Below, one piece after another: positions 4,055 through 10,545 of a DNA stretch of 19,628 nucleotides; position 1 is the stretch's first letter, and every line of letters begins with the position of its first letter. This DNA comes from a virus. Below the pieces are notes generated by a model that saw only the letters and a list, made by a program, of their open reading frames with translations, was not told where the DNA came from and searched no databases. Location of the stretch: UHGV virus genome UHGV-0278008; one strand, written 5' to 3'. Position numbers and translations under genes: made by a program.

Positions 4055-4068
4055 TGGTAAATAAATAT

Positions 4069-4145
4069 GGCGCGTTGTACTGGATTCGAACCAGTGACCG
4101 ATTGCTTAGAAGGCAATTGCTCTGTCCGGCTGAGCTAACAACGCA
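4069..4145 (-). tRNA. tRNA-Arg, anticodon UCU, CCA encoded
   Basis: Hand-folded cloverleaf: acceptor gcgttgt/acaacgc, D-arm gctc/gagc, anticodon loop cttCTaa, T-loop ttcgaat. Confidence 0.8.
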
Positions 4146-4158
4146 GTGTACCGATAAT

Positions 4159-4235
4159 GGACCGCCATCGAGGACTCGAACCCCGCGCAACCAGCTTCGA
4201 AGGCTGGCGCTCTGTCCCGATGAGCTAATGGCGGT
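4159..4235 (-). tRNA. tRNA-Arg, anticodon UCG, CCA encoded
   Basis: Acceptor ccgccat/atggcgg, anticodon loop ctTCGaa, T-arm cgggg-ttcgagt-cctcg. Confidence 0.75.
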
Positions 4236-4244
4236 ATGTGATAT

Positions 4245-4320
4245 GGTGGCCCTTGCTGGATTTGAACCAGCGACCTGGCGATTATGAGTCGCTCGCTCTC
4301 ACCACTGAGCTAAAGGGCCG
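4245..4320 (-). tRNA. tRNA with anticodon CAU (Ile2-type or Met), CCA encoded
   Basis: Acceptor ggccctt/aagggcc, D-arm gctc-agtggtga-gagc, anticodon loop ctCATaa, T-loop GGTTCAAATCC; same order as ileZ-argN-argO of Stx phages. Confidence 0.8.
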
Positions 4321-4359: not shown

Positions 4360-5418
4360 TCATCCGTTCTTACTGACTAAATCCTGAACTTCCCTGACCG
4401 TCTGCTCAAAACGTTCAGTCTCCAGCTCAACGCCAGTTGCACGACGTCCCAGCGCCATCGCTGCTTTGACTGTCGAACCCGACCCCATGAAAAAATCTGC
4501 AACCAGGTCACCCGGACGACTGCTCGCGCTGATTATCTGCTGCAGCATTTCTGCTGGTTTTTCGCACGGATGTTTCCCGGGATAGTACTGCACCGGTTTA
4601 TGCGTCCACACATCGGTGTACGGCACCTGCGCCGTCACGCCAAAATACCGCCGCAGATACTTATATTCACTCTGCAGTTCCGCATACTGCCGGTTCAGTT
4701 CACTGTATGTGCTGACCAGTTGGTGATGTGGCTTTTCCAGTTCTCCGCGCTGATGCTTCTCTTCTGCCACCCGGGCAAACAGCGCCTGTAATTTCAGATA
4801 ATCGCTTTCGTCCGGTAGCTGCCACTGGCTGGCACTGAACCAGTGCGACACCATGTTTTTCTTTCCTGTGGCATCAGCAATCTGTTTTGCCGTTATCCCC
4901 AGGGCAGCACGTGCATCACGAAAGTAAGAAATCAGCGGGGCCATCACATGCTGTTTCAGTGCCCTGCCCTTCGCCTCATACCCGGCATCTTTCGGGCGAT
5001 ACGGCCCCTGATAATGTTCCGCGAACAGAATGCGCTCTGTGGCGGGGAAATACGCCCGCAGGCTTTCCTTGTTGCACCCGTTCCAGCGTCCGGACGGCTT
5101 CGCCCAGATAATATGGTTCAGCACACTGAAGCGTTCACGCATCATGATTTCAATGTCAGACGCCAGGCGATGACCACAGAACAGGTAAAGACTTCCGGCA
5201 GGTTTCAGCACCCGCCAGAACTGCGCAAGACACTGGTCCAGCCATTTCAGGTAATCCTCATCCCCCGTCCACTGGTTATCCCAGCCCTCGGGCTTCACTT
5301 TAAAGTATGGCGGGTCTGTGACTATCAGATCGACAGAGTTTTCCGGTAAGGTCTGGATAAATTCCAGGCAATCAGCGTTGATTAGCTCACAACTGGATAT
5401 TTTTACAGTATTAGCCAT
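4360..5418 (-). CDS. DNA methyltransferase, beta-class (N6-adenine or N4-cytosine), orphan; 352 aa
   Basis: Motif IV DPPY near N-terminus (LIVTDPPYF) and motif I FxGxGST near C-terminus (DFFMGSGSTV); no adjacent restriction endonuclease. Confidence 0.85.
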   Translation of the reverse strand: MANTVKISSCELINADCLEFIQTLPENSVDLIVTDPPYFKVKPEGWDNQWTGDEDYLKWLDQCLAQFWRVLKPAGSLYLFCGHRLASDIEIMMRERFSVLNHIIWAKPSGRWNGCNKESLRAYFPATERILFAEHYQGPYRPKDAGYEAKGRALKQHVMAPLISYFRDARAALGITAKQIADATGKKNMVSHWFSASQWQLPDESDYLKLQALFARVAEEKHQRGELEKPHHQLVSTYSELNRQYAELQSEYKYLRRYFGVTAQVPYTDVWTHKPVQYYPGKHPCEKPAEMLQQIISASSRPGDLVADFFMGSGSTVKAAMALGRRATGVELETERFEQTVREVQDLVSKNG

Positions 5419-7974: not shown

Positions 7975-8247
7975 TTACCTCCAGATGCGCTGCTGGAATG
8001 TGCGGGACGGACGCGGTGGGCGTTCGGAATAAGGGAGCCTGGCGGAGATTATCCAGTGACGACGATCGAAGCTGAGGGCTTTCTCAAACTCATATCCGCG
8101 CCTGCGGTAACACTGGATCAGCCATTCGGCCTGTTCTTCAGTGCATAGGTCATGCTGGAACCAGTCGGTTTTAAATACGTGTGAACGCCGCCCCTGCTTA
8201 ATGGTCGGATCGACTTCAGAATTGTGGGATTTTATATGTTGCGCCAT
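7975..8247 (-). CDS. Hypothetical protein (Rem-like by position), 90 aa
   Basis: ATG with GGAGAA SD; located between DUF968 gene and hok, as rem is in Qin. Confidence 0.45.
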   Translation of the reverse strand: MAQHIKSHNSEVDPTIKQGRRSHVFKTDWFQHDLCTEEQAEWLIQCYRRRGYEFEKALSFDRRHWIISARLPYSERPPRPSRTFQQRIWR

Positions 8248-8415: not shown

Positions 8416-8571
8416 TTACTTCTCAGATTCGTAGTCTACGAAGACAGCAACCTCCGTCTGGCCGGTTCGGATTCGTACCTCGCAGAGGTCTTTCCTCGTT
8501 ACCAGTGCCGTCACTATGACGGTTAAACAGATGACGATCAGGGCGATTAACATCGCCTTTTGCTGCTTCAT
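8416..8571 (-). CDS. hok: Hok/Gef-family type I toxin (51 aa)
   Basis: MKQQKAMLIALIVICLTVIVTALVTRKDLCEVRIRTGQTEVAVF... is near-identical in pattern to HokD/HokC. Confidence 0.85.
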   Translation of the reverse strand: MKQQKAMLIALIVICLTVIVTALVTRKDLCEVRIRTGQTEVAVFVDYESEK

Positions 8572-8628
8572 AGTCTGCTTCTCCTTGACCTTTCGGTCCG
8601 TAAGAGGCAATCTATATGTGACGAGCAT
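8416..8628 (-). CDS. Mok-like in-frame N-terminally extended reading frame over hok (70 aa)
   Basis: ATG at 8628..8626 with GTGAGG SD; MLVTYRLPLTDRKVKEKQTM- extension resembles recalled MokC N-terminus. Confidence 0.45.
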   Translation of the reverse strand: MLVTYRLPLTDRKVKEKQTMKQQKAMLIALIVICLTVIVTALVTRKDLCEVRIRTGQTEVAVFVDYESEK

Positions 8629-8816: not shown

Positions 8817-8990
8817 ATGACCGTTCATGGTATATCGGAAAACAGTACTGTTCACTTACGTGAAAAAAATGGAGAATGGCTTGTAATGCAAATTATTAGA
8901 AACGAAGATATTACATATCAACTCCGAAATACAGATACAGACGAAGAAGTAATCGCCACGCTTCAGGACATTATCTCCCCAAATAAATAA
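8817..8990 (+). CDS. Hypothetical small protein (57 aa), AT-rich, opposite strand to neighbours
   Basis: ATG at 8817 with AAAGG SD and TATACT -10-like hexamer upstream; MTVHGISENSTVHLREKNGEWLVMQIIRNEDITYQLRNTDTDEEVIATLQDIISPNK. Confidence 0.5.
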   Translation: MTVHGISENSTVHLREKNGEWLVMQIIRNEDITYQLRNTDTDEEVIATLQDIISPNK

Positions 8991-9112
8991 TCAAATCAGC
9001 GGGGCGCACAATACCCCGCACTATTCCACTTATCATCCCCAGCGGCAAATCGAATACACCACCAGCGCCACCGCCATTGCAATTCCTACCGTTATGAACG
9101 CTTCAGGCCAGG

Positions 9113-9457
9113 TCATCGTAAAATATCCTCCTCGCTTATCAGTCCGTTTCGCTTCAGGTAGTCCATCGCTTTATCCGGTAATTTACAGTCCGGCTTCGCT
9201 TTCCTCAGTTGCCAGGTTAACTGCTTTACCAGCATGCTTAACTCGTCGACCAGACGCTGATATCCCACTGGTTTGTATTCATGCAATTTACCGACTGGCT
9301 CTGCTGCCAGCAATGCCAGTGCGATTTCCAGAACAGCAATATCCATCTTATATGTGCGGATGATATCATGGTCGATTGTGCCCGGTATGCACAGTCTCTG
9401 TGCTTCAATAGTCTCCTCTGCGTGAGCTATTAACTGCTCTCTGGTAAAAGTGGTCAT
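9113..9457 (-). CDS. Hypothetical nin-region protein (114 aa)
   Basis: ATG overlapping upstream stop (ATGA); N-terminus shares pattern with the 9971..10396 product. Confidence 0.6.
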
Positions 9458-9969
9458 GCCGCGCTTCCTTCTTGCTTATTAACGATTACACCGTCATATA
9501 TTTCATTAAGGTGTCCCCTCAACTCCATGCGCCTTAATGCAGACAACATGTAATCGCATTCAACCTGCTTATTTCCAGTAAATGGCTTATCGTCAGGCTC
9601 ACCCCAACAGCAATTACCCTTGGGCCACCCATGTACTTTCCGTACTCTTCCGTTAACAACGTGAAGTAATCCCCAGCCAGGTGGTAAATCCTCAATTGAA
9701 ATAATTCCCGGCTCACTGATAAAGAATCTCCAGTCGCCCATGCCAAGAGAGGGATTTTTACGGAAACGCTTTTTTCTATCTGCCAACAAGTCAGCACGAG
9801 AACACTTCGCCTCTATCAGGCATGATGCTGAATTTCTGAATCCCATAGCATCTGGTTGTTCTCCAGTACTGGTTACAGCAACAAAGCGGTCATGAAAGCA
9901 AACCTTGAACCCGTTGCGCTTAAGGAACCTGTACGCAATCTGACAGAGTTCGCGGTGCGTTAACGCCAT
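9454..9969 (-). CDS. Putative PD-(D/E)XK-fold nuclease-like protein (171 aa)
   Basis: ATG with AAGGAG SD; motif PDAMGF-x13-EAK fits PD...(D/E)xK signature. Confidence 0.5.
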
Positions 9970-9970
9970 C

Positions 9971-10396
9971 TCATTCTCCTTTGATGCGAATGTTTACAAC
10001 CTGACAAGCCTCTTTGAGTACCCGGTCAACCGCATCTTTCCATGCCCCAGTTTCAACTGGCGGATTCTCACGCTTTACCTGTTCATAAAAGCGCACTGCT
10101 TTAACCAGTCCTTCAGGCACTACAGGCACTGGCGGCATGCGATACAATGGAGTAACACAACGCGAAGCCTCATATTTATCTGACGGACGCTGAAATATCT
10201 CACCGAACCCATATTTTTCAATATCGCGCAGTTCCTCGTCGTCAGTCCATGCCGCCGGTTCTGCTTCCAGCGATGTCAGTGCAATTTTGAATAACTCACC
10301 CTCTACTCGTGCCACGCCTGAATTGGGATGGCATTTCGCAATCGCTATTTTTAATTTAGCTTCTTCGATTAATTGCTCTTTTGTTAATTCAGTCAT
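9971..10396 (-). CDS. Hypothetical nin-region protein (141 aa)
   Basis: ATG at 10396; upstream GC hairpin with GAAA loop between AGGAGG and start. Confidence 0.6.
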   Translation of the reverse strand: MTELTKEQLIEEAKLKIAIAKCHPNSGVARVEGELFKIALTSLEAEPAAWTDDEELRDIEKYGFGEIFQRPSDKYEASRCVTPLYRMPPVPVVPEGLVKAVRFYEQVKRENPPVETGAWKDAVDRVLKEACQVVNIRIKGE

Positions 10397-10545
10397 TTTT
10401 CATTACCGCCCTTTCGGGCGGCCTCCTGATGTTCTGAGGGTGCAGGAATCCCTCCGGTTAAGGATTAAATTTTATTTACAGTGCTGATTTTAATTATTCA
10501 GTTCTGGATTATGCTTTCTCTTTCACTTGCTGTAGTTCCTGGTAA

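Follow-up and report, generated by a model that had tools for sequence, protein, structure and literature searches.

The g3-g2-g1 locus

The DNA analysed here, called the window throughout, is a 19,628-nucleotide (nt) stretch, the virus genome UHGV-0278008, and the subject of the analysis is a row of three small genes on its minus strand, g3, g2 and g1. They form open reading frames (ORFs) of 141 amino acids (aa) for g3 (9971..10396), 171 aa for g2 (9454..9969) and 114 aa for g1 (9113..9457). The central gene encodes an MmcB-like protein of the PD-(D/E)XK nuclease fold and is bracketed by the other two; the bracketing had been described in the first-pass annotation of this DNA. Features lie on the minus strand unless stated otherwise. 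The translational coupling proposed in that annotation is borne out by the gene junctions, which are those of tightly coupled genes. The g3/g2 junction reads GGAGAATGAgATG, a stop codon, one base and a start codon, in the wider context ...AAAGGAGAATGAgATG..., and the g2/g1 junction is an ATGA overlap. The product of g3 consists of an N-module, a helical hairpin followed by an 'IALTSLEAEP' hinge, then an M-module and the tail 'NIRIKGE*'; in that of g1 a short linker joins an N'-module to a C-module. As delimited by matches to an N-module profile, the N-module occupies codons 1-49 of g3 (10250..10396) and the N'-module codons 1-56 of g1 (9290..9457).

The chromosome of Escherichia coli CP55_Sichuan is 100% identical to the window over positions 9000-10500, and the annotation of this record by the Prokaryotic Genome Annotation Pipeline (PGAP) puts the locus within a lambdoid prophage. 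The order of genes on the minus strand begins with a cro-like helix-turn-helix (HTH) regulator, YdaT, an HTH replication protein, a DnaC-like ATPase, DUF1627, DUF977 and DUF4406, and continues with g3-g2-g1, Hok/Gef, a 90-aa gene, DUF968, RusA and DUF1133. A DNA methyltransferase gene, three transfer RNA (tRNA) genes and lysis genes lie beyond DUF1133. This gene order assigns g3-g2-g1 to the accessory (nin-equivalent) section of the early-right operon, with the replication genes on one side and Hok, DUF968, RusA and the Q-like gene on the other. The exact arrangement is rare and was found in 22 of 5426 complete E. coli genomes when coverage of at least 80% of window 9000-10500 was required.

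The MmcB-like protein g2

The middle gene had been called nuclease-like from a PD-x13-ExK motif in its product. The nuclease-like character is supported by structure prediction, Foldseek comparison and conservation, and both the PD and the ExK elements are present; the spacer of 13 residues needs correction, as counting from the translation gives 12 and the motif is P39-D40-x12-E53-x-K55. The catalytic motif (P39-D40 ... E53-A54-K55, 9805..9855) was recognised in the sequence itself, in the alignments A1 and A2 and in the alignment with 3dnx. E37, D40, E53 and K55 are invariant in the 34 close homologues of A1, and in the 44 distant homologues of A2 D40 remains invariant while each of the other three is at least 90% conserved. 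The AlphaFold2 (AF2) model of g2, with a predicted local distance difference test score (pLDDT) of 82, is a complete domain with the core alpha-beta-beta-beta-alpha-beta fold. D40 stands where strand 41-45 begins and E53 and K55 where strand 48-54 ends, which puts the conserved D ... (D/E)-x-K on consecutive strands. g2 thus has the PD-(D/E)XK fold and retains the active-site signature intact, and its family is sister to the MmcB-like DNA-repair nucleases.

The closest structural neighbour of g2 belongs to the MmcB-like family (PF06319 / DUF1052; 3dnx, SPO1766; Caulobacter MmcB) and shares the ExK-SRxDFxxD motif, in its extended form D...E-x-K-x-S-R-x-D-F-x-x-D. Next among the structural neighbours come phage proteins that bear the MmcB-like label, and several 'MmcB-like DNA repair protein' entries were returned by Foldseek from viral models. 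In a profile search of PDB sequences the D...ExK-SRxDFxxD segment of g2 aligned with 3dnx (E = 0.17); phmmer with the single g2 sequence gave only noise against PDB sequences. Among the 44 distant relatives six touch PF06319 (best E = 2.9e-4) and seven touch the archaeal Holliday junction resolvase Hjc. The PHROG matches of g2 are to families 9263 and 631, whose function is not known, and weakly to phrog_5429 'DNA repair protein' (2.8e-3). MmcB itself is described as a PD-(D/E)XK endonuclease protecting Caulobacter from mitomycin C and cisplatin (review PMC9578287).

g2 also departs from this family. It falls below the gathering threshold of the MmcB-like family hidden Markov model (HMM), so that it is not a member by the Pfam model, and unlike the family it gives no Pfam match even at E <= 1; there was likewise no NCBIfam match and no PADLOC match at E <= 0.1. 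The earlier description of the 171-aa product as having an unassigned function accordingly holds for Pfam and NCBIfam models, but not for structure, where g2 is a clear relative of MmcB-like nucleases. Whereas MmcB is encoded by an SOS-regulated gene of the chromosome, g2 is found on phages, prophages and plasmids and in conjugative regions, and unlike the MmcB-like family it has a conserved C-terminal segment of its own (GWGLL ... NKQxE ... ALRR). Its similarity to Hjc and to type II restriction endonuclease domains (SdaI, PaqCI, NgoMIV, FokI) is much lower than that to 3dnx. In contrast to type II restriction enzymes g2 has neither a recognition domain nor an adjacent cognate methyltransferase in the window, and a methylase adjoins it in only two of about 33 homologous loci. 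A restriction-modification role was rejected on the lack of an adjacent methyltransferase, the nearest being at 4360-5418, about 4 kb away. A role of g1, g2 and g3 in anti-phage defence was also rejected, as none of the three matches a PADLOC model at E <= 0.1.

PGAP reduces g2, in each of the five RefSeq E. coli records inspected, to a 179-nt 'hypothetical protein, frameshifted' and leaves about 337 nt blank. The gene thus annotated stands, outside the window, at positions 2001-2516 of L046 and of L047 and 2501-3016 of L048, three other E. coli contexts. These calls are what speaks for g2 being a decayed, frameshifted pseudogene in which the PD-ExK motif is a relic. The ORF is nevertheless uninterrupted over 516 nt, full-length homologues of about 171 aa are found across Enterobacterales and further, and the AF2 model shows a complete domain. 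Against the Enterobacter and Citrobacter homologues the proportion of nonsynonymous differences per site (pN) is 0.07 and that of synonymous differences (pS) 0.76-0.80; raw proportions are given instead of a distance-corrected dN/dS because synonymous sites are saturated. Codons 1-60 and 61-171 have similar pN/pS, and the unannotated codons 61-171 alone give 0.08 versus 0.80. g2 is under strong purifying selection. With an uninterrupted ORF and pN far below pS over the whole length, the pseudogene call is an annotation artefact, and it is hardly conceivable that g2 is a relic.

The family is widespread. A search of 5.8 billion proteins gave 328 relatives of g2, mostly of 160-175 aa, across Enterobacterales, and a g2 profile gave 3257 matches at E <= 1e-3 among 1.84 billion cluster representatives; truncated members form clusters of 111, 121 and 144 aa. 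g2 is found in 928 of the 5426 complete E. coli genomes (17%), at 1296 places, with up to six places per genome and 248 on plasmids. It occurs in 642 phage records, including Stx1- and Stx2-converting (Shiga toxin), Klebsiella and Vibrio phages, and also in large (about 150-160 kb) phage genomes of Salmonella, Dickeya and Klebsiella. About one in six complete E. coli genomes, Shiga-toxin phages included, thus carry a gene with neither a Pfam nor an NCBIfam model, and g2 is likely to be missed in annotation-based functional surveys because RefSeq records call it a 179-nt frameshifted pseudogene.

The neighbours of g2 in E. coli differ widely and include ead/Ea22-like genes, DUF551 and others, the ead/Ea22-like gene being directly adjacent in O157:H7 and other strains. 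Neighbours were further surveyed in 34 homologous loci from species other than E. coli. In enteric loci g2 lies inside arrays of Ead_Ea22, DUF551 or helical-N-plus-hinge genes, often with ATGA overlaps, and in other Enterobacterales seven of 19 genes downstream of g2 encode proteins whose helical N-terminus closes with an (A/S/E)(E/D/K)P(V/I)A hinge. Outside Enterobacterales g2 occurs without any N-module gene, next to NinB, RusA, DNA methylases, Lar, dATP/dGTP pyrophosphohydrolase or TraC/TraV conjugation genes. A narrow N-module HMM found an N-module neighbour only in Enterobacter wuhouensis among the 34 loci; the lack of a match to it was not counted as absence of an N-module, because inspection of several enteric loci revealed more divergent helical-N plus hinge genes near g2. 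Since loci outside the enteric group have these other neighbours instead, the N-module neighbourhood is a property of enteric arrays and not of the nuclease family.

Shared modules, cassette edges and alternative alleles

A similar N-terminal pattern in the 114-aa and 141-aa products had been noticed from the sequence, and profiles show it to reflect homology even though the pairwise alignment is weak. BLASTP aligned the two N-termini at 32% identity over 56 aa with E = 5e-4 in a two-sequence search, and phmmer with the single N-module of g1 or of g3 did not find the partner among 3135 ORFs. These two results would suit a chance resemblance between short helical low-complexity peptides. Such a reading is very improbable, being contradicted by profiles and chimeras alike. 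Three independent PHROG profiles, phrog_5117 (2.4e-9 and 5.2e-17), phrog_60 (7e-9 and 2.4e-13) and phrog_3323, are matched by the two proteins at identical N-terminal columns. An HMM built from five N-modules of other proteins, g1 and g3 left out, recovers g3 at 6.9e-10 and g1 at 6.4e-7 among the 3135 ORFs, and alongside them only other N-module proteins of the fetched loci. With the same profile columns matched and an independent HMM recovering both, the N-modules of g1 and g3 are, on profile evidence, homologous. Natural chimeras moreover swap exactly at the N-module, and a 28-nt repeat encoding the hinge, described below, scores better than all of 200 shuffles.

Beyond the shared module, g3 matches phrog_660 (1.8e-49) in addition to phrog_5117 and phrog_60, whereas g1 matches positions 145-193 of phrog_660 with its C-module and phrog_5117, phrog_60 and phrog_3323 with its N-module. 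g1 and g3 have no Pfam match at E <= 1, no NCBIfam match and no PADLOC match at E <= 0.1. Both carry the helical module and IAL(A)SLEAEP hinge of a small-protein family represented by phrog_660 / 5117 / 60 / 3323. In one of its members, P0336, the N-module is predicted to form helices 6-22 and 27-44 at a pLDDT of about 77-84, within a model of overall pLDDT 65 and a predicted template modelling score of 0.33. Homologues of g1 with 93-94% identity occur in phages ArgO145 and vB_EcoS-689R5.

The C-termini of g1 and g3 had been described as unrelated. They are indeed not related to each other by BLASTP, but they are modules of one family and occur fused in a single protein. In alignment A3 g3 is laid out as N + M and g1 as N' + short linker + C, while P0336 (187 aa) and its relatives (183-193 aa) join N + M + C in one chain and so combine the body of g3 with the C-module of g1. 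P0420 (107 aa) consists of a g3-type N-module and the g1 C-module, P0313 of an Ead_Ea22 N-terminus and the g3 M-module, and P0451 of the g1 N'-module and DUF551. Some Salmonella relatives of g3 bear the name 'protein Eaa' in their source records.

In several respects g1 and g3 resemble the Ead/Ea22-like proteins (PF13935) of the lambdoid exo-xis region. These too are small phage proteins made early; their N-terminus varies, parts of them are helical or coiled, and their C-terminal domains can be exchanged. The two groups share the same gene arrays, and Ead/Ea22 parts form chimeras with the g3 module (P0313) and with the nuclease (P0093). Unlike those proteins, however, g1 and g3 do not match PF13935 at E <= 1, and profile-profile comparison with hhalign gave 6% probability over 15 columns, so that membership was rejected. 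Ea22 of lambda is tetrameric and pro-lysogenic (PMC10834534, PMC7093339), and this pro-lysogenic function is not transferable to g1 or g3. In Salmonella enterica three proteins of 240-252 aa (P0093, P0094 and P0103) have an Ead_Ea22 N-terminal domain fused to a g2-type nuclease domain, and carry an acidic C-terminal tail (ELELELE).

The nuclease gene occupies a sharply delimited cassette (9438..9992). In three other E. coli contexts (L046, L047 and L048), namely the exo-xis region of O157:H7 after an ead/Ea22-like gene, another prophage and a 96-kb plasmid, blastn matches the window only over 9992..9438-9443, a block of about 550 base pairs (bp) with 95-96% identity. The left edge of the block lies 23 nt upstream of the g2 ATG and supplies the final seven codons and the stop codon of the upstream gene, whatever that gene is, which is the reason why very different upstream proteins end in (A)GIRIKGE, or VNIRIKGE in g3. 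This left junction linker (9967..9992), delimited from shared tails and junction DNA, comprises the '(N)IRIKGE' codons, the upstream stop, the Shine-Dalgarno sequence AAGGAG and the g2 ATG, and its KGE codons (AAAGGAGAA) double as the g2 ribosome-binding site. In vB_EcoS-689R5 (L004) the same left junction precedes a different gene. The right edge is formed by the ATGA overlap together with the initial few codons (MTTFT or MTTIT) of the gene that follows.

The g1 gene has a cassette of its own (9035..9474), kept at 93-94% identity by blastn in ArgO145 (L003) and vB_EcoS-689R5, which starts 17 nt before the g1 ATG, inside the 3' end of the preceding gene, and reaches about 78 nt beyond the g1 stop. 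In ArgO145 the slot upstream of the g1 homologue holds an HNH endonuclease gene with the same overlap (L003, 2139-2504), and in vB_EcoS-689R5 it holds a 55-aa 'EaA' ORF (L004, 2337-2504). The latter is a chimeric stub: an N-module runs up to the EAEP hinge, and precisely from there the chain continues as the 14 C-terminal residues (VVFWFEKYQEGATA) of the HNH endonuclease of ArgO145. The short shared junctions and the in-frame hinge would accordingly be sites of cassette exchange, in keeping with the established mosaicism of lambdoid phages.

One prophage slot carries three alleles, N-C, N-M-C and N-M | nuclease | N'-C. It is shared by the window, by L040-L043 (P0420) and by L044-L045 (P0336), on the Hok/DUF968(/RusA) side of a replication-gene block that includes DUF977 in L040-L043 and DUF1627 in L044-L045. 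By blastn, window 10513..10260 corresponds to L040 2886-3137 (91.7%) and window 9327..9037 to L040 3110-3400 (94.5%). Because these two matches meet in L040, where they overlap by 28 nt, the window has an extra block of 932 nt (10259..9328) relative to L040, made up of the g3 M-module, g2 and the g1 N'-module. An imperfect direct repeat of 28 nt, coding for the hinge, flanks the block and forms the crossover zone relative to the L040 allele. The upstream copy (10260..10287) encodes (K)IALTSLEAE and the downstream copy (9300..9327), identified by comparison with the first and with L040, encodes (E)IALALLAAE. Compared directly, the copies agree at 24 of 28 bases, against 20 of 28 for the best of the 200 shuffles, with a longest exact run of 6 nt. 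Relative to L044 the N, M and C segments are collinear, and 760 nt of the window stand where L044 has 57 nt.

The segment immediately upstream of g3 (10397-10428) is 91.7% conserved in L040. It carries a strong AGGAGG 24 nt before the g3 ATG, there being no good Shine-Dalgarno sequence directly before this start codon, and between the two a stable hairpin, GCCGCCC-GAAA-GGGCGGT, which could bring the Shine-Dalgarno sequence near the start. On the 3' side of g1, just beyond its conserved block, a consensus scan detected a terminator-like GC-rich hairpin with a T-rich tail (8999..9019), a candidate terminator between g1 and the Hok locus.

Origin and meaning of the arrangement

The layout built from these observed elements, the gene anatomy, the fold, the conservation and selection, the allelic series and the cassette boundaries, is probably the outcome of normal lambdoid cassette swapping at conserved junctions around an intact, stand-alone MmcB-like nuclease. 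g2 is a cassette complete in itself, about 550 bp long and inserted into a tandem array of small modular genes, whose g1/g3-type products begin with a helical hairpin ending in an 'IALASLEAEP' hinge and continue with interchangeable C-terminal modules. Array genes are joined by conserved junctions of about 20-35 nt, in which the last codons of one gene are followed by the ribosome-binding site, a stop/start overlap and the opening codons of its successor, and the hinge-coding 28-mer inside the N-modules would play the same role. Homologous or homeologous recombination at junction or hinge sequences would then swap cassettes, and the bracketed g3-g2-g1 layout would result from recombination rather than represent a dedicated three-gene system. 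Module exchange at conserved gene-boundary sequences has reportedly been recognised in lambdoid mosaics by Juhala et al. in 2000 and Clark et al. in 2001. Lambda Red recombines DNA of 22% divergence efficiently and has been proposed as a source of this mosaicism (PMC2327257), and Stx phages have a variable gene set downstream of ea22, with full and partial gene duplications in the exo-xis region (PMC8614690). Both the direction and the mechanism of the recombination events are here inferred.

As in known lambdoid boundary mosaicism, cassette edges coincide with gene junctions, junction sequences are short and shared, and a slot holds alternative alleles. The locus differs from the classic form in that its junctions are dual-coded, a C-terminal tail serving as the ribosome-binding site of the next gene, and in an extra crossover site inside coding sequence, at the N-module hinge. 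The first-pass annotation had proposed domain shuffling around the nuclease. Shuffling is indeed evident from the alternative alleles and the chimeras, but it is not organised around the nuclease; in other phages g1 occurs without it, after an HNH endonuclease gene in ArgO145 and after a chimeric stub elsewhere. The locus is an instance of the well-known mosaicism of lambdoid phages, the gene in its midst being an uncharacterised and mis-annotated member of a nuclease superfamily already known, and it represents no new principle.

Several observations weigh against cassette swapping around an MmcB-like nuclease. An N-module-type gene with an ATGA overlap stands right after g2 in every E. coli context examined, and Salmonella has proteins in which an Ead_Ea22 N-terminus is fused to the nuclease; on account of this adjacency and these fusions the nuclease may be functionally linked to helical N-modules. 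The sharply bounded, multi-copy g2 cassette and the ArgO145 HNH gene would also fit a selfish homing-type element. The three alleles do not tell the direction of events, insertion versus deletion, g2 misses the Pfam MmcB-like model, and MmcB is known only genetically, as a mitomycin C/cisplatin resistance gene (review PMC9578287).

In one rival explanation g1, g2 and g3 form a functional unit, the helical N-modules binding g2 as adaptor, targeting subunit or immunity-like inhibitor. The tight coupling of the genes would agree with this, as would the N-module at the start of the gene after g2 in four of four E. coli contexts, the seven of 19 downstream genes with helical N-terminus and hinge in other Enterobacterales, and the natural Salmonella fusions. 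We nonetheless regard such a unit as unlikely. g1 occurs without g2, and g2 stands beside RusA, NinB, DNA methylases, Lar or TraC/TraV without an N-module gene; the N-modules following g2 in E. coli belong to several subtypes and are combined with differing C-terminal modules, and the PADLOC searches mentioned above were negative for all three proteins. The adjacency itself is fully explained by the residence of g2 in arrays of N-module genes.

The other rival makes g2 the driver of its own spread. HNH, Seg and Mob genes of T-even phages are free-standing homing endonuclease genes, and g2 resembles them as a small nuclease ORF between genes with tight edges and presence/absence polymorphism. 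In this reading g2 would cut alleles lacking the cassette at or near the junction or hinge and be copied in by repair, the shuffling of neighbouring N-module genes being a side effect. A block of about 550 bp with sharp bounds and 95-96% identity in exo-xis region, nin region and plasmids is what such an element would leave, and up to six places per genome, the 248 plasmid places, the homing-type presence/absence alleles at one slot, the HNH gene in the equivalent slot upstream of g1 in ArgO145 and the many truncated copies (111-, 121- and 144-aa clusters) can be read in the same way, although truncated copies are equally expected from ordinary prophage decay. Unlike the known homing families, however, g2 is widely conserved, strong purifying selection acting on it across genera between which synonymous sites are saturated, and its nearest relatives are cellular repair-type proteins. 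It is also present in the phage genomes of about 150-160 kb from Salmonella, Dickeya and Klebsiella and in conjugative-transfer regions, and neither a target site nor a co-conversion gradient in flanking identity was seen, though no search for either was made. Homing is therefore only putative for g2, and we judge it improbable as an explanation of the layout. Still more doubtful is its general form, in which the cassette recognises the junction or hinge of N-module (Ea-like) arrays, spreads among prophages, phages and phage-plasmids and generates the exo-xis/nin shuffling.

For cassette swapping around a stand-alone nuclease, functions of the parts may be proposed by analogy. Its MmcB- and Hjc-like relatives and its company with NinB, RusA, Erf and Exo-type functions suggest that g2 is an early-lytic, Mg2+-dependent DNA endonuclease acting on damaged or branched phage DNA in replication and recombination. 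g1 and g3 may be oligomerising, adaptor-like small helical proteins, by analogy only with tetrameric, pro-lysogenic Ea22, which belongs to a separate family. The accessory regions in which g2 resides, exo-xis and nin, affect the choice between lysis and lysogeny as well as the induction of Stx phages, and an MmcB-like nuclease identity offers a concrete biochemical hypothesis for one "dark" gene of these regions. The locus is, in addition, a clean example of how dual-coded junctions and an in-frame hinge would let lambdoid phages swap both genes and protein modules.

Some features of the surroundings deserve mention. A Hok/Gef-family toxin ORF (MKQQKAMLIALIVICLTVIVTALVTRKDLCEVRIRTGQTEVAVFVDYESEK) adjoins g3-g2-g1 at 8416-8628, and a small plus-strand ORF annotated as hypothetical (8817-8990) lies between it and g1. 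The 90-aa ORF at 7975-8247 is 'hypothetical' in the identical record and a 'GIY-YIG nuclease family protein' in the 99.8%-identical L002; if the latter label is right, it would be a second small nuclease-like gene of the same accessory region. The three prophage tRNA genes (4068-4319) are Arg(tct), Arg(tcg) and Met(cat) according to ARAGORN, and PGAP labels the gene with the CAT anticodon tRNA-Ile, presumably assuming lysidine modification. The identical RefSeq record also flags as 'frameshifted' a continuous ORF of 645 aa at 864-2801 (DUF6645 in PGAP), which may be another questionable pseudogene call.

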